Below, in pieces: positions 41,163 to 58,658 of a stretch of 64,000 nt of DNA. The DNA is taken from contig CAXXFK010000020.1 in the NCBI GenBank assembly GCA_963663965.2, positions 160,001-224,000 of the forward strand. Direction: 5' to 3'. The notes under the pieces were generated by a model, which saw only the letters and a list, made by a program, of their open reading frames with translations, searched no databases and was not told where the DNA came from. A program made the translations under genes and the position numbers. Within the stretch, counting starts at the first letter, position 1, and the number at the start of each line of letters is the position of its first letter. The DNA is from Sedimentisphaerales bacterium. Its GTDB lineage: Bacteria; Planctomycetota; Phycisphaerae; Sedimentisphaerales; SM23-30.

Positions 41163-43162
41163 AAAGTAGATTAGTTTTAATTTGAATTACCAATGTAAGT
41201 AAGACTATCAACCGCTAGTCTTATAATTAAATAGCCATTTGAACAATAATATCTGGGCACATTTTTCGCCTTAGATTAATAGTAATATCAATAGGCCTGA
41301 ATAATCTTATTGATTCGAACCATTTGATTGTCTCGATTTGATTTCAAACTCATTGCGCCAACTCTTAATTCTATTTTTTGCTTCCTGAATCTCTTCTTCT
41401 GACATTTTCTGTGATAATTTTTTTCAAATTTCAACGCTTTTTCAAATTTTTGTTCTGATATCATAAGCCATTTGTAAGCTTCAATTATATCTTCTGCAAC
41501 ACCATCCCCGAAAAAATACATTGCTGCTAAATAATATTGTGATTCTTTATATCCTTGTTCCGCTGACAATGTAAACCATTTTGCTGCTTTTTGAAAATCT
41601 TGATCAACACCTGAACCATCTAAATATGCGATCCCTAAATTAAATTGCGCTTCAACATTTCCTTGTTCTGCCGCTTTTTGGTTCCAAAAAAATGATTTGT
41701 TTAAATCCAGGGCAACACCATTGCCTGTTTCATACAAGTTTGCCAGTTTAATTTGTGCATCAACTAATCCCTGTTCCGCGGCTTTTAAATACCATTTCGC
41801 GGCGATTGTATAATCCTGATGCACACTTTCACCAGACTCATATAAGAGCCCCAATGCCAATTGCGAATTTTTTTCTCCCTTTTCAGCCGCAAGTCGAAAA
41901 TAGTCTAATCCCTTACTCTGATCCCTTTCTATACCTTCGCCATTAAAATAGATTGCGCCCAGATTATGACTAGCAATATAATTTCCATTTTTTACTGACA
42001 ACTCATACCATTTGATTGCTTCAGTAATATCCCGGTTAATACCTTTACCATTATGATAATAATTACCCAAGTAAAATTGGGCGTCAGGCTCGTTCTGTAA
42101 AGCCGCCTTGTAAAACCAGTCAAACGCTTCTTGGTAACTTTTTATTCCACCAAGCCCTTTATCGCACATGACTCCTATCATGATTTGCGAGTTGACAAAT
42201 CCCTGTTTCGCTGCACACAAAAACCACTTTTTAGCTTCTAAAAAATCTTGATTCACACTATCGCCATCATAATATAAACTACCTATGTAATATTGAGCTT
42301 CAGGATGGCCTTGTTCCGCTGCTCGCAGAATCCAATTATAGGCCTCTATACTATCCTGTGCAATGCCATCTCCTTCACTATATATTCTTCCTAATAAAAA
42401 TTGTGCATCTTTAAGGCCATTTTCTGCGGCTAATTGGATCCACTTTATTGCTTCATTCTTATTTATTTCAGTGCCTGTTCCATTATAATAATATGTGCCA
42501 ACAAGTAATTGAGCTTGGGTATTACCGAGACATGCTGGTAATGTTAACCATTTTAGTGCTTCCTTGTAATCCTGTTTAACATGTTTTCCATTGTTATAAT
42601 AGAGCCCTAGAATGTACATAGCATCAGGGTGATTATTTAATGCAGCTTTGTAGAATAGGTCATATGCTGCCTGGTAATCTTGCTCCATATCACAACCATT
42701 ATCGTAAAATAAACCCAATATAAATTGTGCTTCAGCATTTTCTTGTTCTGCCGCCTTTTTGAGCCACTTCGTAGCTTTGTGATAATCTTGTTGTGTTCCT
42801 TCGCCCTTGTAATACATAGACCCCAAACGGTACTGTGCTTGCGGATGGCCCTGGTCGGCCGCTTTTTCAAGCCATTTTATGGCTAATTCATAATTCTGTT
42901 TTACACCTATTCCACAATCATATGCTTTACCTAAATTAAATTGAGCCTCCGCATGATTATTCAGGGCCGCTCTTTCAAGCCATTCAATTGCCAGAGCATA
43001 ATTTTGAATAACGTCATTACCATTTGCGTATTTTATACCTAATACATATTGCGATTCTGGATCACCAGATTTTGCTTTTTCTTGGATTTGATTAAATTCT
43101 TTTTGACGATCTTCCTCGACGCAATTTTGACCAATGATTTGTTTCAAGATATTAAGTACGAT

Positions 43163-44576
43163 CACTCTTGTCCAAAATAAATTTTGACAATTAAATAGAG
43201 ATATCTCCAGGATGAGTTATATTAAAGTTGCAAAAAAATAAAAAACTCAGCTGGAGATATAAACCCATGATAAAGTCAGGCAGTCTGTTTACGCAAGTAC
43301 TTTCTCTGGTAGATCGTAATGAATTTGCCCGATCTGTAGATCGATTTGGGGCGGAAAAGCATTGCAAGGGCTTCCGTTGCTGGGATCAGTTTGTGTCAAT
43401 GATGTTTTGCCAGTTGGCCGGTGCGAACTCCCTGCGTGAGATCTGTGGTGGATTATCCACGGCCCTGGGCAAATTGACCCATCTGGGCATGAAAGAGGCG
43501 CCCTCCCGTTCCACCCTGAGCTACGCGAATACTCAGCGGCCATGGCAGTTGTATGAAGCGACCTTCTATCAGCTTTATCAGTATGGCGCTGAGATCGCCG
43601 GTAAGCAGAAGCGGCGCTTCCGATTCAAGAACCCGTTATTCAGCATAGATGCCAGCACCATTGACTTGTGCCTTAAGGTGTTTGACTGGGCCAGATTTCG
43701 GCAGCGTAAAGGAGCGGTGAAACTCCACATGATGCTTGATCACCAGGGCTGTTTGCCCAGTTGGGCCTGGATCACCGACGGCAAGGTTCATGATGTCAAA
43801 GCGGCCAGAATGCTTGATTTAGAGCCGGGAACGATCGTAGCGATGGATCGAGGGTATGTCGATTACGAATTATTTGACCACTGGACTGAAACCGGTGTCT
43901 GGTTTGTCACCAAAGCCAAAAGTAATATGAACTACCGCGTGGTCGAATCTCGGGAGGTTCCTGAGAGAGGCAATATTCTGTCCGATGAGTTGATCGAATT
44001 TACCGGTTATCAAGCCCAAAAAAGATGCCCTCGTGTGATGCGGCGGATTGTGGTATGGGATGCGGAAAATGAGCGTGAGATTACCTTGCTGACCAATCAT
44101 CTGACATTTGCCGCCAGCACGATCAGTTCGATCTACAAAGATCGCTGGCAGATTGAGTTGTTTTTCAAGGCGCTCAAGCAGAATTTAAAAGTAAAGACCT
44201 TTGTGGGTACCAGCGAAAATGCCGTCAAGACACAGATTTGGACAGCATTGATATGTAGCTTAATACTGAAGATCATGCAGATGCGTTCCCGTTTTGGCTG
44301 GAGCCTGTCTAACCTGGCCGCCCTGTTAAGGCTTAACTTGATGACTTATCGTGAGTTGTGGACATGGCTGGATAATCCGTATCAAACGGCGGCATTAGGG
44401 CCGCCTGTCAACCAGCCCTTATTGTTTGAACTGTAACTTGGACAGCATGAAATATAACCGTATAAAAAAACAGGGTAACCTGAACTCAGAAAATGGAAAA
44501 ATCTGTCTGAAACAACCCTTTCAGGCCGGTTTAGAGACAACATGTTAGAGATTTCAATTTATTTTGGACAGCAGTG
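43163..44576 (+). mobile_element. Complete IS4-family insertion sequence (1414 bp)
   Basis: TIRs CACTCTTGTCCAAAATAAATT / AATTTATTTTGGACAGCAGTG; 9-bp target duplication AAGTACGAT at 43154-43162 and 44577-44585. Confidence 0.95.
43267..44436 (+). CDS. IS4 family DDE transposase (DUF4372 + DDE_Tnp_1)
   Basis: IDASTI, AMDRGY, YKDRWQIELFFKALKQ (YREK motif); GGAG RBS before ATG 43267. Confidence 0.95.
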   Translation: MIKSGSLFTQVLSLVDRNEFARSVDRFGAEKHCKGFRCWDQFVSMMFCQLAGANSLREICGGLSTALGKLTHLGMKEAPSRSTLSYANTQRPWQLYEATFYQLYQYGAEIAGKQKRRFRFKNPLFSIDASTIDLCLKVFDWARFRQRKGAVKLHMMLDHQGCLPSWAWITDGKVHDVKAARMLDLEPGTIVAMDRGYVDYELFDHWTETGVWFVTKAKSNMNYRVVESREVPERGNILSDELIEFTGYQAQKRCPRVMRRIVVWDAENEREITLLTNHLTFAASTISSIYKDRWQIELFFKALKQNLKVKTFVGTSENAVKTQIWTALICSLILKIMQMRSRFGWSLSNLAALLRLNLMTYRELWTWLDNPYQTAALGPPVNQPLLFEL

Positions 44577-51249: not shown

Positions 51250-54200
51250 CTACAACTCCATCTCCGGATTCAACTCCACCTCCACCATAAACGGTTGACT
51301 CTCGGCGCGGTTGTCCGGCTGATAATATTCATAGACCCGGGCCGGTTCGATGCGGGCCTTCACCGGGTATTTGGCCTTGAGCTGATAGTCAAATGTAAAG
51401 GGCTTGTCTGCCGGCAGCGCGCGCAGATACAGGATACACTGCGTCCCGGTTATTTCATATCGGGCCAGTTGACCGGCGGCCTGCAACAACTGGAACCCGG
51501 CCGGATCCACTCCGAATCCCGGCGGAATACCCAGATCGACAATCGCCATCGGCACCACACCCCCGGACAGATTACGCACCGTCACCGTACAGCCCAGCCG
51601 GTCATCCACTCCCAGCCGGGTCCGGTCATAACTCACCGCGATATCCAGCTGCCGGTCCGGCCCGGGCTCAACCAGAGTCCCCGGCTCACGATCCGGCACC
51701 CAGTACCCGCCGCTCAACCGATACGGAATACTGCCGCCGCGGCTGCTGATACGGATCGCGTTTTCGCCCGGCCGCAGGATCTCTGACAAATTGAGCGCCT
51801 GCACCAGGTCACTGTTGCGCGCGTCAATCACCGCCTGCCCGGCCGGCCGGCCATTCACCTGCACCTCCAGTTGAATGGTCTGATCCGAGCCCAGCGCCTG
51901 ACGCATCCCCATCATCAGCGCCTTCATGGTCAGTATCGTACTCTGGGTGGAATGCCAGGAGCCATAGCTATCCTTCTGCCGGGTCAGCCAGGTCAGCGCC
52001 TTGCGGACAATCTCACCGTGGCGGTTGCCCTTCATCAGGGCCATCGTCCCCAGCGCCGTTGTCTCGATATCCAGGCATATGCCGCGCGAATACATCATCC
52101 CGCAACCATCGCCGCTCAGGAGGGCCAGCTGACCCTCCTGCTCAAACCGATTCGCCAGCACATCCGCCAGCTGCCTGCCGGCAGTGTCATTGGGATTAGC
52201 CGCCAACAGCGCGTTGGCCGCCAGCGCCATCACATACGGCGACCGGACCTCACCGAGATGCTCCCTCAGATACGCCATCGCGCGCGCCACGCCCTCATGC
52301 TCGATACCCGCTTCAGCCAGGTTCCAGGCAATATAGGCGGTCGGGGCGACCGGGCCCATCCGCTGGACATCCACCAGGTGCACATCCCGGTCATCCGGCC
52401 AGGATCCATCCTCCCGCTGCTTGCCAAACAGCCAGGCGGCGGTGCGGTCGATGATCCGCTTGTCCACCGAATGCACCCTGGCCATATCCGAAAATTCCAT
52501 CACGCCATAAGCGCTCAGCATAATATTGGCCGGTGGATTGCCGAACCAGTCAAAGCCGCCGCCGGCCACCTCAAAGGTCAGCAGCCGCTGATAACCCGCG
52601 GCAATGAACTTGCGGGCCTTTGCCTCGATCTCCGGCGTCACCTGTTTGGTTTCCAGCATATATTGCAGAACCATGATATTCGGATAAGTAATCGAGCTGG
52701 TCTGCTCGAAGCAGCCATACGGCATCTGGAAAATAGCGTCCAGGCCCTCCATCACCTCGCTGAAGGTCGATGGATACAACGTCAGCTGCAACTGCTGCGA
52801 ATGGGCAATCGCCTCTTCCGCCAGGGTCAGCGTATGCCGGTTATCGCCCGTCAGCGAATCGCTCACCAGCCAGTTTACCTCGCGGCCGTCCGGCTTTACG
52901 CGCACCTCGCGCCGGATCGCGTCGCTCATCGCCTGGCCCTGCGCCAGTACCATCAGCGGATGCGTGCCCACCTCAACCGCCTTGATCCGGAACGAGACCG
53001 ACAACACCTCATTCGGCTGGAGTGTCAGCTGCTTGCGCGATTGATCCAACACCTCGCACCACGAATCCACCTGCAAAGCCAGCTCCACTGTCTGCTCACG
53101 ATTCAAATAGTTATAACAGACCACCGGCAGGGTAATCTCATCGTTGCGCGTCAAAGCCACCGGCAAATCCAGGTCCACAAAGAAATCCTGGAACACCTTC
53201 AAACCCAGTTCGCAACTGCCCAGTTGCCCACCGGCCGAAACCGCGTCGATATTCATCCGCCAGGTAGTAATTGAATCGGCCGCCGTCAACTCGATCCGGG
53301 CCCGGCCGCCATCATCCGTGATCACCTGCGGCTGCCACAACAGTGTCTCAGGAAAATAATGGCGTACACGGGGGGGGGCGCTACTCTGACCTGTCATAGA
53401 CTCTGAAAACAATGAAGGATTATCATTTCTGACCATCTCGATGGCACTATCGGCCGCTTGCATGGCACTTGCCGCGACCATTTCTTTCGCCCTGATCCTT
53501 GATCTACCTAAAGCCGGCATAAATAATGATGAAACAAATAAAGATAAAAATAAAATAAGTACAATTTTCAAAATCAAATATCGAATTTGTATGATTGCAC
53601 TGAAAAACAGAATCAGCATACCGATGATTGTCCCTATAATCAAAAGTCTGAAAAAGGTATTCTTAAATATCTTCTCCATCGAACCTGACTTTTTCTGGTT
53701 ATCATATCGATTAGCATAAGAAATTGAATACATCGGTTTATCAGGTTTGAGAATCTTCATAATCTCTTGATATCTGGGTTGATTTAAAATTTCACTAAAA
53801 CCGGGATTATCGATATATTTTTGAATATTTTCCAGAATATGTGGATCAATATATTCTTTGAGCTCCTTTAAAATCTGAGCGTTTCGCAATGAATCCACTG
53901 CATTTTTTTCCCGAATCGAAAACAGCGCCATCGCCAGCGTCTGATAGCGTTCATCACCACCCAGCAGTTGCGCCGGCGATACTGCAAACTTGATCTGATA
54001 GGCCGGCTGCAGCATCTCCTCATCGATCGCGAAAAACTGCTCCATCAATCCCGGCCGGTTCTCGCCCACGTAAAAGACTGCCTCATCCACCGCGCACACC
54101 CCCAGCGCCGCCGGGACCGATTGCCGGTACCGGTCTGTCACCTGCAAATCAATTGTCACCGGATCACCCGGCCGGTAAACCGGCTTGTCAGGCCGCGCGT

Positions 54201-56058
54201 CGATACGCAACTCATTCACCGGCTGCACCTGGACAATCCGCGTATCCAGTACCGTGCGGCCCTCGTGATTGATTTGATAGGCGTTCACCCGCAGTGTACC
54301 CGACAGCGACGCCGGCAGGTCAATCACCAGATCGCCCCGCCCCGCTTCCACCTCCAGCGTCCGGGCCAGCATCGTCTGGCGGTCCTTGATAATATCGACA
54401 AACATCCGCTCCGTCGTATTGGCTGTGATCACACGGATCGCCAGCGGCTCGCCGCCGCGATAGACCGCCTTGCCGGTCCGCAGAATAAAACGCCGTTCAT
54501 CCCCCACCTGCTCCAGGCTCTTTTCATAGATCCCGTTATTGCCCTGTGTATCCACCGCCGTAATACGCAAGGGCGTCTCTTCATCGCCACTTATCGTCAG
54601 CAGCGCCACCCCGGTAGTATCGGTGCGGACCTGTTTACCATTGACATTCAGCGAACAGAGCGCCGGCCGCCCATCGGGATAAGCCGTCAGAATATAGACC
54701 CGGTTCTCCAGTCCCGGCACCATCGCGCCGCTTTCCGGAATCACATGCACATCAATCGCCTGACTCGCCACTACCACTGGTTCCCGGGTCTGCTGCGTGT
54801 GCCCGGCGGTATCGGTCACACTCACCCCCAGTTCAATCACCGCGTTGCCGCCCGTACGCAAACTGCCGGCCAGCCGGTCCGGGATAATATGCTCCAATTG
54901 AAACTTCCCCTGCGCATCCGTCTGCCCCGTCACGCGAAACAGTTCCAACTCCCCGGCCAGATAGGTGTTCGCCACCACCTCCACCTGTCCAGCGGCCACC
55001 GGCTTGCCAAAGAAATAATCCGCCTGCACCGTCACCTGCATCACTTCACCGGCCAGATAATAGGGTCGATGCGACTCCGCCATCACCTTGAATTTGGGCA
55101 GTACATACTGTTTCACCGTCACGCTCTTTTCCGAAGTCACCCCGCCGGCATCAATCACAATCTTATACAACCCGGTATTGACCAGCGTCGCCAGTTCAAA
55201 ATCCGCCGCCGCGATCCCGAATTCCGAAGTTTGCTCCTCCGCGCGAAACACCTTGTTGCCCTTGGGATCCTCGACTTCAAAAACCACCGGCTGCCGGTCG
55301 GCCGGTTTTTGCGACACGGTATGCAGCGCCAGCGCCCGCATATGGATGGTCTGGCCCGGCTGATACAGCGGCTTGTCCGTCGTCACATAGATCCGCTGCG
55401 GCCGCTTGACCGTAATCGCCTGGCTCATCGAATCGCTGTCCCACCCCACCGGAATCACATTCAGGGTATAGTCTCCGCCCGCCATCGCCGGAATCACAAT
55501 CGGATCATCCAGACAGCCATCCGGCCCGGTGCGAAACCGGCCCAGTTCCACTTTTTTATTCGAGTCCTTACTCACCAGTTCGATCCGGACCGCCTTATCC
55601 TCCAGCGGTTTGCCCGTCTGGTAATCCTCCAGCAGAACCCGCAAAGCCGCCTCACTGCCGGAATACAGGCTGTCCTGCCCCAGCACTGTCATATTCACCA
55701 ACTTGGGCGACCAGACATACGCGCGATAGCCATAATACCCCAGCGCCGCCAGATAGAATAGCGCGGCGATCTTCAACACCTTCATAAAGATCTTCGGCAC
55801 CCGGGAAGGGCCCCTGGGTTCCTGATCCGGCTCCGCGGAGCCCGGATCGATCTGACCCATAATGGATTCGGTCACATCCCCCTCTTGATAATACTGACCC
55901 GCCGCCAGCAGCCGCTCGCGCAAGGTACGATTCTCCAGGTAAAACCGCCCGCAGTCCTCACACGCCTCCACATGCAATTCCATCAGCGACCGGGTCCGCT
56001 CATCCAGCAGACCTTCCAGGTACGCGATCATTTTATCCTGACATTCCTGACATTTCAT
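51250..56058 (-). CDS. zf-HC2 anti-sigma domain fused to alpha-2-macroglobulin with thioester motif
   Basis: AAGGAG + ATG 56058; MKCQEC...HVEACEDC (HxxxCxxC), TM helix, TDKPLYQPG and PDKPVYRPG MG domains, AVDEAV, RHYFPETLLW, MPYGCFEQ thioester, GSWHSTQST, VYEYYQP. Confidence 0.9.
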   Translation of the reverse strand: MKCQECQDKMIAYLEGLLDERTRSLMELHVEACEDCGRFYLENRTLRERLLAAGQYYQEGDVTESIMGQIDPGSAEPDQEPRGPSRVPKIFMKVLKIAALFYLAALGYYGYRAYVWSPKLVNMTVLGQDSLYSGSEAALRVLLEDYQTGKPLEDKAVRIELVSKDSNKKVELGRFRTGPDGCLDDPIVIPAMAGGDYTLNVIPVGWDSDSMSQAITVKRPQRIYVTTDKPLYQPGQTIHMRALALHTVSQKPADRQPVVFEVEDPKGNKVFRAEEQTSEFGIAAADFELATLVNTGLYKIVIDAGGVTSEKSVTVKQYVLPKFKVMAESHRPYYLAGEVMQVTVQADYFFGKPVAAGQVEVVANTYLAGELELFRVTGQTDAQGKFQLEHIIPDRLAGSLRTGGNAVIELGVSVTDTAGHTQQTREPVVVASQAIDVHVIPESGAMVPGLENRVYILTAYPDGRPALCSLNVNGKQVRTDTTGVALLTISGDEETPLRITAVDTQGNNGIYEKSLEQVGDERRFILRTGKAVYRGGEPLAIRVITANTTERMFVDIIKDRQTMLARTLEVEAGRGDLVIDLPASLSGTLRVNAYQINHEGRTVLDTRIVQVQPVNELRIDARPDKPVYRPGDPVTIDLQVTDRYRQSVPAALGVCAVDEAVFYVGENRPGLMEQFFAIDEEMLQPAYQIKFAVSPAQLLGGDERYQTLAMALFSIREKNAVDSLRNAQILKELKEYIDPHILENIQKYIDNPGFSEILNQPRYQEIMKILKPDKPMYSISYANRYDNQKKSGSMEKIFKNTFFRLLIIGTIIGMLILFFSAIIQIRYLILKIVLILFLSLFVSSLFMPALGRSRIRAKEMVAASAMQAADSAIEMVRNDNPSLFSESMTGQSSAPPRVRHYFPETLLWQPQVITDDGGRARIELTAADSITTWRMNIDAVSAGGQLGSCELGLKVFQDFFVDLDLPVALTRNDEITLPVVCYNYLNREQTVELALQVDSWCEVLDQSRKQLTLQPNEVLSVSFRIKAVEVGTHPLMVLAQGQAMSDAIRREVRVKPDGREVNWLVSDSLTGDNRHTLTLAEEAIAHSQQLQLTLYPSTFSEVMEGLDAIFQMPYGCFEQTSSITYPNIMVLQYMLETKQVTPEIEAKARKFIAAGYQRLLTFEVAGGGFDWFGNPPANIMLSAYGVMEFSDMARVHSVDKRIIDRTAAWLFGKQREDGSWPDDRDVHLVDVQRMGPVAPTAYIAWNLAEAGIEHEGVARAMAYLREHLGEVRSPYVMALAANALLAANPNDTAGRQLADVLANRFEQEGQLALLSGDGCGMMYSRGICLDIETTALGTMALMKGNRHGEIVRKALTWLTRQKDSYGSWHSTQSTILTMKALMMGMRQALGSDQTIQLEVQVNGRPAGQAVIDARNSDLVQALNLSEILRPGENAIRISSRGGSIPYRLSGGYWVPDREPGTLVEPGPDRQLDIAVSYDRTRLGVDDRLGCTVTVRNLSGGVVPMAIVDLGIPPGFGVDPAGFQLLQAAGQLARYEITGTQCILYLRALPADKPFTFDYQLKAKYPVKARIEPARVYEYYQPDNRAESQPFMVEVELNPEMEL

Positions 56059-56090
56059 GGCTGTATCTCCTTGCCAACCGCAGTTGACAG

Positions 56091-56639
56091 TTATGGGTTG
56101 AGTGAATGGGCCAGCCGTTCGCGCAGCATCTGATAGGCGCGCGACAGCATCTTGGTCACCGTGCCGATCGGCATCTCCATCTGGGTCGCCACTTCGCGGC
56201 ACGTCAGACCGCTGAAATAGCGCATCATCACCAGGTTCCGATACGGCTCCGGCAGGCTCTCCAGCGCCTCTTCCAGTTCATAATCGCCCGCGGGCGACTG
56301 CGAACCGGGATGATTCGGTTGGGTTTTCATCCGGGACACCTCTTTGTGTTTCTTTTCCGTGCGAACGGTTTCCAGTACGACCAGGTAAGCGATCCCCAAC
56401 AGCCACGCGCCCAGCTTCTCCGGCTCCTTCAACTCATCCAGCCCGCGCCACGCTCGCAGAAAGGTCTCCTGCACAATATCGTCCGTATCATGGATATGGT
56501 GTTTACGCGCCAGCCAGGCCCGCACGATCGGCTGATAACGCCGGATCACTACCCGAAACGCCTCAGCCTGACCGCCCAGGCACCGCGCGATCGCCTCCCG
56601 GTCGGACAGGGCCGCCTGATTGTTGGTCTGTGTTTCCAA
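56091..56639 (-). CDS. ECF sigma-70 family RNA polymerase sigma factor
   Basis: DDIVQETFLRAW, AWLLGIA, GTVTKMLSRA; TTG start. Confidence 0.92.
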   Translation of the reverse strand: METQTNNQAALSDREAIARCLGGQAEAFRVVIRRYQPIVRAWLARKHHIHDTDDIVQETFLRAWRGLDELKEPEKLGAWLLGIAYLVVLETVRTEKKHKEVSRMKTQPNHPGSQSPAGDYELEEALESLPEPYRNLVMMRYFSGLTCREVATQMEMPIGTVTKMLSRAYQMLRERLAHSLNP

Positions 56640-56661: not shown

Positions 56662-56684
56662 GTGGCACGGGCATCCTGCCCGTG
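56662..56684 (+). repeat. REP-like element (GTGG + palindrome)
   Basis: GTGG-CACGGGCA-TCC-TGCCCGTG: GT(A/G)G tetranucleotide followed by a perfect 8-bp stem, the canonical REP layout. Confidence 0.65.
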
Positions 56685-57186
56685 ATTGAGTTTTGTATTT
56701 TTTCACAGGCGCCAATGCCCGGTCAACCTGGTTTTTCGCAACAGGAACGGATTGCTATTCACTTGTTTAACGATTAAAGGATACACCAGTGTTTCTTTCT
56801 ACCTGATTGTGAAAAAAATCAGCCGGATTGCGACAAAATATTATATTTTTTTGCATTTCTTCATTTCCACCCCATCCCCAACACCGCTCTAACCGCCGGT
56901 AAAAAATCAATTTAGCAACAAACACTCGACCTTTTACAGGTTTGTCAGGACAAATACCAGCTTCAGATATGCCTTGACACTATGCATAATAATGTGTTAT
57001 TACTGAATAATAGGTATGACCGAATTTGCATATTAGAGTATTTAATGAAAATCAGGCATTATATGTCTATATTTTCTTAATTTGGTAATAAAAATTCTGA
57101 GTCATGAAAGGAGTGAACATGTTGGTGGAATCAAGCTCTAAGGTTGTTTCGGTAGTTGTCTTTCTTTATGGTTAAATGTTTTCTAA

Positions 57187-58164
57187 ATGGCCAGGAATTC
57201 ACCCAAAATTCAAAGATTGCTAAAGCAAAATGCAACTACTAAGCGGAAATATGTTGTTAATTATGCCACGGATTTACCACATATTTTGGTTGAACTTGAG
57301 CCAGACCAGGATCCGAACAATCCTGACACCGTTGAGCGGTTATACTATTATTACAATGATTTATTAGTTGCTCATCGTGAAGGGGCCTATTCAATCGGTC
57401 AGTACCAAAACAGATATTTTTATCTGCATGACCGATTAGGCAGCGTCAGACAGATCATCGATTATTTAGGTAATGTGAAAAATCGTTATATTTATTCACC
57501 CTGGGGCAACCAGTTACTGGATGAATGTGAAACAACGATTGAAAACAATTATCTCTTTACCGGGTTATTTTATGACTGGGAAATTGATGCTTATGATGCC
57601 CGGGCAAGGGAATACTTCCCCTACCTGGCAAGATTTAATGGCTACGATCCTGTCCTTGGAAATTTCCAGGAACCACTTACCCTGCATCAGTATTTGTATT
57701 GTTTGAATGATCCAGTGAATATGATTGATTCAGATGGGAATATGGCATTCGTAGCAATGATGACTGGAACAGGCGGAGCAACAGCATTAGAATGCGCATT
57801 ATATGCTGGCGGTGCTACTTTAGCAGTTTATGTAACATACAAGTTGTTTGATGCAATTGATTTAAATAATACTGTCTTAGATTTAGTGATTGCTGCTGAT
57901 AATGCATTGGATAACATTAATGATGCTCTTATGGATACTGCTATTAATATAGCTGTTTGGGCAAAATCGCGTGATAGTAGTAAAAATGAACCACATGGTG
58001 ATGGTGGGAGATCACTAGAGAAAGCAAGAAAACAAATTGAAGAATTGGAAGAGCAACTTAAGGATGCAACTGGAAGAGAAGCAAAAAAAATTAAAAATAA
58101 AATCAAAAGGATATGGGACGATGCACAAAAAAAGAAAAAAGGAGAAACACACCATAAAAGATAA
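57187..58164 (+). CDS. Orphan Rhs core with C-terminal putative toxin domain
   Basis: YLHDRLGSVR, YSPWG, YLFTG, RAREYFPYLARF, HQYLYCLNDPVNMIDSDG; hydrophobic linker then a Lys-rich helical tip. Confidence 0.88.
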   Translation: MARNSPKIQRLLKQNATTKRKYVVNYATDLPHILVELEPDQDPNNPDTVERLYYYYNDLLVAHREGAYSIGQYQNRYFYLHDRLGSVRQIIDYLGNVKNRYIYSPWGNQLLDECETTIENNYLFTGLFYDWEIDAYDARAREYFPYLARFNGYDPVLGNFQEPLTLHQYLYCLNDPVNMIDSDGNMAFVAMMTGTGGATALECALYAGGATLAVYVTYKLFDAIDLNNTVLDLVIAADNALDNINDALMDTAINIAVWAKSRDSSKNEPHGDGGRSLEKARKQIEELEEQLKDATGREAKKIKNKIKRIWDDAQKKKKGETHHKR

Positions 58165-58178
58165 ATGAGGTATAAGAT

Positions 58179-58658
58179 ATGATAAGTAAAGTTATTATAA
58201 AACCACTTATAGGCATAGATAGTATTCATCTAGGGATGCAAAGAAATGTTGTAGAGACTGTATTAGGTGTTCCAGATTTGTTTGAGCAAAAAGCTTATGA
58301 TGAAGATGATAGCACAGAAGTGATATTGGAATACACAAGCTTTGGTATTGAATTGACGTTTTCGTCTACAGACAATTATCTTCTTGGAACAATAACGATA
58401 AAATCAGAGGAAGCAGAGCTTAATGGTCATAAAATAATCGGTTTGAGGGAAAACGAATTTTTGAATTTGTTATCTCATATCAATATTGGCCCAATTAAAT
58501 TGGAAGACGATTTTATTGATTTAGATTCGCGCGACTACACGTGTGATAGCCTGAGTATGTCCTTTTGGGTACATAACGGAATATTAACCTCAATAACATT
58601 ATATCCTAAATATGATGATACGGGGAATACTCCTATTTGGCCGAATATTATTAGATAA
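58179..58658 (+). CDS. Putative immunity protein
   Basis: Starts 14 bp after the Rhs stop, acidic, AT-rich; IKPLIGIDSIHLGM...VLGVP N-terminus. Confidence 0.7.
   Translation: MISKVIIKPLIGIDSIHLGMQRNVVETVLGVPDLFEQKAYDEDDSTEVILEYTSFGIELTFSSTDNYLLGTITIKSEEAELNGHKIIGLRENEFLNLLSHINIGPIKLEDDFIDLDSRDYTCDSLSMSFWVHNGILTSITLYPKYDDTGNTPIWPNIIR

Follow-up and report, generated by a model that had tools for sequence, protein, structure and literature searches.

An ECF sigma factor gene followed by an anti-sigma/thioester macroglobulin fusion in a Sedimentisphaerales bacterium: a candidate protease-sensing circuit

A 64,000-nucleotide stretch from a Sedimentisphaerales bacterium (assembly GCA_963663965.2, contig CAXXFK010000020.1, positions 160,001 to 224,000; hereafter the window) carries a sigma factor gene of the extracytoplasmic function (ECF) type and, exactly 32 bp behind it, an open reading frame (ORF) of 1602 aa. 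The pair had been described in a sequence-only reading of this DNA as an ECF gene with a ~1600-aa ORF 32 bp on. The long ORF starts with an ATG at 56058, preceded by AGGAG, and ends at 51250; it joins a zinc anti-sigma domain, a transmembrane (TM) helix and a thioester macroglobulin into one protein (Table 1). No terminator-like site was found downstream. One public contig, possibly the window's own source, covers the entire window with zero differences. The nearest named relative of the fusion protein (P0003) is from Sedimentisphaerales by its source label, and one genome of the window's family encodes the same protein start. A chimeric assembly or a pseudogene would fit the strongly deviating GC content of the bait-coding DNA; it is hardly credible for a single open frame that is spanned by one contig and whose architecture recurs in dozens of genomes, and the conservation data already contradict it.

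Table 1. Features of the ECF/fusion locus, in coordinates of the window.
Feature	Position	Strand	Remarks
Candidate autoregulatory ECF promoter	56806..56835	-	-35 at 56835-56828, -10 at 56811-56806; consensus from orthologs
REP-like palindrome	56666..56684	-	between promoter and ECF start; 23 genome copies at ≤2 mismatches
ECF sigma gene	56091..56639	-	182 aa; Pfam Sigma70_r2 and r4_2 over cut-off
Anti-sigma/thioester macroglobulin fusion ORF	51250..56058	-	1602 aa; three predicted TM helices
Class I anti-sigma domain with zinc motif	55846..56058	-	residues 1-71; C3, H29, C33, C36; Pfam zf-HC2 3-36 over cut-off
TM1	55714..55791	-	residues 90-115; predicted N-in/C-out signal anchor
Macroglobulin ring, MG1 to first half of MG6	54073..55698	-	residues 121-662
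Bait-region insert	53365..54072	-	residues 663-898; small helical domain, helical stalk, TM hairpin, flexible linker
TM2	53590..53646	-	residues 805-823; end of long helix 784-821
TM3 and pilin-like helix	53422..53580	-	TM3 828-846, helix on to 879; degenerate prepilin-peptidase signature
Disordered linker	53359..53421	-	residues 880-900; predicted local distance difference test (pLDDT) <50
Thioester domain	51916..52767	-	residues 1098-1381, Pfam TED
CFEQ thioester motif	52702..52713	-	C1116-Q1119; Cys codon intact
His1227	52378..52380	-	aligns with a His of CD109; not strictly conserved in relatives
C-terminal MG8/receptor-binding domain	51298..51549	-	residues 1504-1587

The sigma factor consists of sigma2 and sigma4 only, joined by a short linker (Pfam r2 32-96, r4_2 121-172 of 182 aa). 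In the fusion, the zinc motif has the form C-x25-HxxxCxxC and lies in an N-terminal helical anti-sigma domain (ASD) followed by a TM helix, which is the layout of class I zinc-binding anti-sigma (ZAS) proteins. The HxxxCxxC noticed earlier corresponds to H29-C33-C36, and the zf-HC2 profile passes the Pfam cut-off over it. Similar sigma/anti-sigma complexes have already been solved, so a model of the present pair shows likeness more than proof. When the ECF protein was modelled with residues 1-75 of the fusion, the complex scored 0.75 against 0.01 for the best control, a mark reached by 51 of 78 solved pairs and by 2 of 108 mismatched ones. The runs share at least 89% of contacts, with a partner pLDDT of at least 87. 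Helix 1 is placed against sigma4 and helix 4 (residues 60-71) against sigma2, in agreement with the dual interface described in PMC7406223. The sigma binding predicted for this domain by the sequence-only reading is thus favoured by the model, to which likeness to solved pairs may contribute. The N-terminal domain very probably acts as the anti-sigma factor of the co-encoded ECF, with its cytoplasmic zinc module holding this sigma factor.

Outside the membrane, the fusion appears to be a macroglobulin of animal type. Besides zf-HC2, the following macroglobulin domains pass their Pfam cut-offs: MG2 (222-315), MG3 (317-385), A2M_BRD (527-662), A2M (905-994), TED (1098-1381) and A2M_recep (1504-1587). 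Their order, a ring of macroglobulin (MG) domains, a split MG6 with the bait insert, TED and MG8, is normal for the A2M/TEP superfamily; our structure model covers residues 1-1100, and a CUB domain was not separately identified. The best match among solved structures is CD109 (E 2e-68), followed by A2M (1e-60), A2ML1, TEP1 and C3, with Salmonella A2M at 6e-12. Foldseek likewise puts C3, CD109 and C4 on top and ECAM in 41st place. By these comparisons the macroglobulin is CD109/C3-like and not of the E. coli type, with which it had been compared at first and which is the wrong reference for this gene. There is strong support, at the level of sequence, for a complete thioester macroglobulin of the CD109/C3 type that TM1 carries on the outer side of the inner membrane.

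With human CD109 (PDB 8s3o, 9fx3) and A2ML1/A2M the fusion shares the MG/TED/MG8 order. CD109 is a membrane-tethered inhibitor, in which bait cleavage exposes the thioester and changes membrane attachment, according to passages of PMC12927315. It is held by a glycosylphosphatidylinositol anchor at MG8 and released whole, whereas the fusion would be anchored by TM1 and a hairpin in the bait and, unlike CD109, carries a cytoplasmic domain for transcription control. The match to E. coli ECAM/YfhM and Salmonella SaA2M (PDB 4u48, 5a42) is limited to the above E of 6e-12. Type I bacterial alpha-2-macroglobulins (A2Ms) are held by a lipid anchor; in contrast, the fusion has TM anchors and a bait with TM helices, no pbp1C neighbour, and none of the two extra N-terminal MG domains (type I has ten MG), with Pfam MG2 beginning about 105 residues after TM1. 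The absence of PBP1C claimed earlier holds at the fusion locus and fails for the genome as a whole: its only BiPBP_C match, a 682-aa ORF of PBP1C type, follows a separate 1785-aa macroglobulin-like ORF on contig C1 (L083:3541-10943), an ECAM-like locus. This adjacency is a further reason why the E. coli-type A2M is the wrong comparison for the fusion gene. Two more macroglobulin loci bring those outside the window to three. The one on C39 (L081:5266-10200) encodes a soluble CD109-like paralog with a hydrophobic N-terminus, without bait helices and without an ECF gene; on C31 (L082:4567-8750) the macroglobulin gene is in pieces.

The thioester seen in the initial reading is indeed intact, at residues 1116-1119, and CFEQ is invariant in 27 aligned fusions. 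Of 42 loci paired with an ECF gene, 36 reach the thioester site: 22 have the Cys codon and 14 a TGA with an open frame beyond, so that the reactive Cys, or TGA at its codon, is kept in all 36. More broadly, 34 loci have an ORF that stops at the thioester Cys. The stop is TGA in every one, with 440-496 open codons behind it, and the TGA loci mostly have a more stable hairpin than Cys controls. Judging from these sequences, the TGA probably encodes selenocysteine (examples are L219, L227, L235, L247, L075 and L224; 14 of the 34 loci are ECF-paired fusions).

Such chemistry could also serve a contact sensor resembling complement, with a thioester that couples to hydroxyls or amines of a surface, a polysaccharide or a neighbouring cell. 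Activation would come from an endogenous protease or from slow spontaneous hydrolysis, and attachment would be felt through the two anchors, leading to sigma release. C3, C4 and CD109 are among the best structural matches, His1227 aligns with a CD109 residue that we take to be the counterpart of the catalytic His of C3/C4B, and the probable selenocysteine of many relatives suggests a tuned reactivity. On the other hand, a His near this position occurs in just 96 of 166 sequences by a loose rule, and the closest sequence matches are protease inhibitors. Inner-membrane proteins of diderms do not reach outside surfaces, and we regard contact sensing as quite unlikely.

A single TM helix had been claimed for the protein; we found three, the extra two (805-823 and 828-846) lying inside the bait region and, by hydropathy, between the two halves of the split MG6. 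The AlphaFold2 model of residues 1-1100 (43 sequences, mean pLDDT 79.6, pTM 0.65) shows the MG sandwiches, two long helices at 784-821 and 827-879, and a disordered segment at 880-900. From this model, the 880-900 linker would be the best candidate for the protease-cut bait. Among the best 120 of 3529 related proteins, bait helices are predicted to number six in 83, two in 13 and five in 12; 0, 3, 4 or 8 are found in one protein each, and eight proteins are unscorable. A split domain with both halves outside requires an even number of helices; the counts of five are probably missed helix calls. In the 83 six-helix relatives, Lys and Arg per loop alternate as 4.3, 0.9, 3.9, 0.6 and 4.2, and around the N-terminal anchor they amount to 3.3 before versus 0.8 after (109 relatives). 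Both patterns argue for a cytoplasmic N-terminus and for both macroglobulin halves outside. In this topology, which is strongly supported, the bait hairpin re-enters the membrane, and the macroglobulin cage is pinned at two points with the flexible linker beside.

In relatives, the last bait helix resembles the N-terminus of type IV prepilins and pseudopilins, matching profiles of this kind (TIGR02532, GspG, DUF1559-type). One could therefore imagine that it is cut by prepilin peptidase, or engages a type IV pilus or type II secretion platform, and that the C-terminal half is thereby pre-activated or exported. The helix of P0013 passes the TIGR02532 cut-off and follows a predicted cytoplasmic loop, and the genome has 47 strict prepilin-type N-termini. 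Against this, P0001 gives no pilin match at E 0.01, and the cleavage signature is largely gone. We could register 102 of 166 sequences for scoring (57 lack the Pro pattern and seven the anchor; the window is counted twice): Glu5 is kept in 49 of them, and the full signature of small residue, hydrophobic residue and Glu5 in 5. The window protein, with Arg at -1 and Lys at +5, does not have it. A conserved prepilin-peptidase cleavage of the bait helix was accordingly rejected, and a link to pilus processing is highly unlikely. Unlike in prepilins, the helix is internal and has no pilin head, and a borrowed membrane stalk is the best reading of it.

The bait is also the most divergent extracytoplasmic part in 20 of 20 locus pairs compared, soluble forms included. 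At the DNA level it stands out by low GC: the GC content at third codon positions is 0.38 against 0.73 and 0.76 on its flanks, the largest contrast among 46 TM-bait loci, and the core at 53400-53900 has a GC of 0.25-0.34 within a gene of about 0.6. This contrast suggests that the window's bait was replaced recently. The genome yielded no donor for the low-GC DNA, and an Atlas search with the bait region gave no usable match.

The fusion is not unique to this assembly. HxxxCxxC occurs within the first 120 residues of 26 of the same best 120 proteins, query included, a count that is too low because the start of P0005 was called late: its database start (L336:829-6072) lies 66 residues downstream, and the genome encodes the missing zinc domain. 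Gene order was scored in a pool of 227 loci, consisting of the 80 top loci out of 442 in genomes and the 80 top loci out of 525 in metagenomes, all 59 matches, own ones excepted, in a sample of 401 genomes of the phylum, six more loci, the C39 paralog and the window. An MG1-2 match was present in 203; 23 of these were dropped for flanks below 1200 nt and 180 were scored. The loci were picked by similarity to the query and not deduplicated, and the ECF profile was seeded on P0002.

Every locus with a zinc motif or a ZAS-profile match (32 of 32, window included) has a co-oriented ECF gene directly upstream, ending 290-840 nt before MG1, so the expected synteny with ECF genes is borne out. Without the zinc motif (148 loci), ECF genes are found in 10 and absent in 138; the N-termini of the 10 look like degenerate or non-zinc anti-sigma domains. 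None of 117 soluble loci, having neither zinc motif nor TM bait, has an ECF gene directly upstream. At least one bait TM helix is predicted in 33 of 35 ECF-paired loci with a scorable bait versus 10 of 127 without ECF, in a set where kin are not independent. In the window's own order, the N-terminal third of the fusion has a match in 22 of 251 genomes. The same pair of ECF and fusion recurs in two genomes of its family, from two other genera; in a third genome of the order, a different ECF goes with a multi-TM N-terminus.

Variants of the arrangement occur as well. In four loci with soluble macroglobulins (L158, L163, L167 and L188) an ECF gene lies 1.3-1.9 kb upstream, beyond our cut-off, with room for a separate anti-sigma gene; these are possibly an unfused form of the circuit. 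In L002, L003, L004, L020, L109 and L110 an ECF gene directly follows the macroglobulin stop, with an anti-sigma-like ORF behind it where seen; it is a second ECF where the upstream flank is covered. Three Verrucomicrobiota loci with a TM bait and no anti-sigma domain (L340, L341, L342) all have a divergent, excisionase-like HTH_17 gene upstream.

We placed 85 of 168 sequences, after redundancy removal, in a quick IQ-TREE tree of the C-terminal half, whose backbone is weak. ECF pairing changes at least six times on it and TM bait at least seven times; in a 73-row tree without short-flank rows, each changes at least five times. A single clade for the 31 ECF-paired rows is rejected (approximately unbiased test, p-AU 2e-5; the label was set before the trees and the test run after the first tree was known). 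The partner ECFs fall in several clades, with at most 29% identity to the window ECF and some paired with non-zinc N-termini, and two zinc fusions lacking bait helices branch within the soluble forms. The repeated changes of pairing, the rejected single clade and the several ECF clades together indicate that the combination was built or rebuilt repeatedly: by these trees, fusion to an anti-sigma domain is recurrent. A co-evolution of TM bait with ECF pairing is not supported, as a tree-aware test found four independent pairs and no co-variation, and with it a dedicated signalling role of the hairpin lacks support from that test.

Orthologs of the window ECF were found in 84 of 251 genomes of the order. 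Their upstream regions share a sharp, bipartite motif, TGTCGCAAA followed by CACTA, whose core word occurs in 26 of 31 regions and also before both closest fusions (two other genera, same family). The window's copy deviates from this consensus by a spacer one base longer and one change in the -10. We had considered two other promoter candidates: the first, just upstream of the ECF start, proved to be the 23-copy REP-like (repetitive extragenic palindrome) element, and the second, at 56784, is a single genome occurrence and does not follow the ortholog consensus. The group thus appears to be under an autoregulatory promoter, clear in orthologs and deviant in the window.

Scanning the genome with a position weight matrix (PWM) yielded one strong site, before a paralogous ECF gene on C21. 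At score 14 there are 55 sites versus 49 and 48 in two shuffles, and beyond the C21 promoter there is no excess over the shuffles, bar eight repeat copies. These eight identical promoter-like sequences, on C7, C15, C19, C20, C27, C30 (two) and C42, are probably part of a mobile element. The 127 neighbour genes of 40 macroglobulin loci have nothing in common beyond close kin. With no other site above the shuffles and no common neighbour genes, the identifiable output is the operon itself.

We slightly favour the view that the two genes form a self-replenishing protease alarm, in which the trap acts as the sensor and reorders more trap. A protease entering the periplasm would cut the 880-900 linker. 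The macroglobulin would then change shape and form a covalent bond with the protease, like CD109 and ECAM; ECAM is sprung by bait cleavage, which exposes its thioester, and its N-terminal MG domains were absent after elastase cleavage, according to passages of PMC4498604. The spent trap would be processed near TM1, either because the captured, still active protease takes the site-1 role or because TM1 has lost the shielding by the hairpin. A site-2 protease of the M50 type, which the genome does encode, would free the anti-sigma domain and release the sigma factor, much as RseA and other membrane anti-sigmas succumb to site-1 and then site-2 proteolysis (passages of PMC8103513). Acting on its own operon, the released factor would replace the consumed trap. 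Since this operon is the only identifiable target, such replacement would be the main output; about half of ECFs are autoregulated according to passages of PMC8103513. Our confidence falls a little short of even for the further claim that the thioester protein (a probable selenoester protein in many relatives) is itself a transmembrane sensor that signals protease capture through the bait hairpin to the zinc anti-sigma domain and was assembled several times in PVC bacteria.

The main rival, which we consider unlikely though by a smaller measure than contact sensing, treats the macroglobulin as regulated cargo: a membrane-anchored trap fused behind a stock ECF/anti-sigma module. The sigma factor would be freed by turnover or stress proteolysis of the anchor region, independently of bait and thioester, and the fusion would merely tie expression to envelope damage. 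Such a role would fit the partners of this ECF group, since 27 of 30 orthologs with a partner found have a zinc anti-sigma bearing another periplasmic part (judged by eye on the first 150 residues); the macroglobulin is thus one interchangeable input module. TM-bait macroglobulins also exist without any anti-sigma, modules are swapped within one macroglobulin clade, and the loci have no common neighbour gene beyond close kin. What speaks for the trap as sensor instead is the repeated fusion, which goes beyond mere co-transcription and is more readily understood if the anti-sigma domain is controlled by the trap's state, together with the bias of TM baits towards ECF-paired loci, in a set where kin are not independent.

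Several points nevertheless weigh against a sensing trap. A bait cut lies ~780 residues from the anti-sigma anchor and does not sever the anti-sigma domain, so a second step is needed; this release step near TM1 is entirely our inference, for which the membrane-pinned bait offers a possible route. As the ECF group is usually paired with anti-sigmas other than macroglobulins, the sigma factor may be released in some generic way. The window's own promoter ranks below the 45 best genome matches, and the genome scan does not rise above its shuffles. Eight of the 180 scored loci have a TM bait without ECF and two zinc fusions have no TM bait, while the three close Verrucomicrobiota relatives lack the anti-sigma domain and show no ECF in their flanks (one flank is ~430 nt). 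The tree-aware test found no co-variation, the segments flanking the hairpin are rich in Lys and Arg (3.5, 3.1) though predicted outside, and the score of the complex model may stem from likeness to solved sigma/anti-sigma pairs.

Among known regulators, the pair comes closest to class I ZAS systems such as RseA-RpoE, with RsiW and RsiV as further membrane examples. It shares with them the ECF gene followed by an ASD-TM-extracytoplasmic protein, the dual binding interface, here modelled, and an autoregulatory promoter, clear in the orthologs. Unlike in those systems, sensing would fall to a suicide-type thioester protein of 1480 residues whose bait is polytopic. In the titles and abstract starts that we searched, which cover few subscription papers, we found neither an anti-sigma-macroglobulin fusion nor a transmembrane bait described. 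Passages of PMC12939704 and PMC7826278 contain neither, the word "macroglobulin" is absent from the supplements of PMC7406223 and from those parts of the PMC7826278 supplements that were accessible, and a CAGE preprint is, in the portion consulted, unrelated to such a fusion. Public annotation names these proteins by single domains only, among the best 120 of 3529.

Elsewhere in the window, a low-GC gene pair divergent from the ECF gene (57187-58658, forward strand) consists of a 325-aa ORF, presumably an Rhs core plus C-terminal tip, and a 159-aa ORF that we take to resemble an immunity gene; Pfam gave no Rhs match for the former. A DDE transposase (DUF4372 and DDE_Tnp_1; 43228-44436) sits beside a 15-repeat Sel1 protein (41288-43165), between two GH127 genes.

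Altogether, the fusion appears real and widespread on the sequence comparisons; what is new is an unexpected putative sensor on an ECF/class I anti-sigma system, with a plausible mechanism. Its CD109/C3-like bacterial family lies far nearer to the thioester proteins of animals than ECAM does, and we found no description of a thioester protein with three or more membrane crossings by way of the bait loop. Bacterial macroglobulins have so far been described as passive traps. One wired to a sigma factor would give a transcriptional read-out of trap activation, and hence a reporter test for the proteases or events that trigger it. If the mechanism is true, swapping the bait linker could yield a programmable protease biosensor. 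If the trap is indeed the sensor, these proteins would represent a class of innate-immune receptors in bacteria that detect, trap and report within a single protein.

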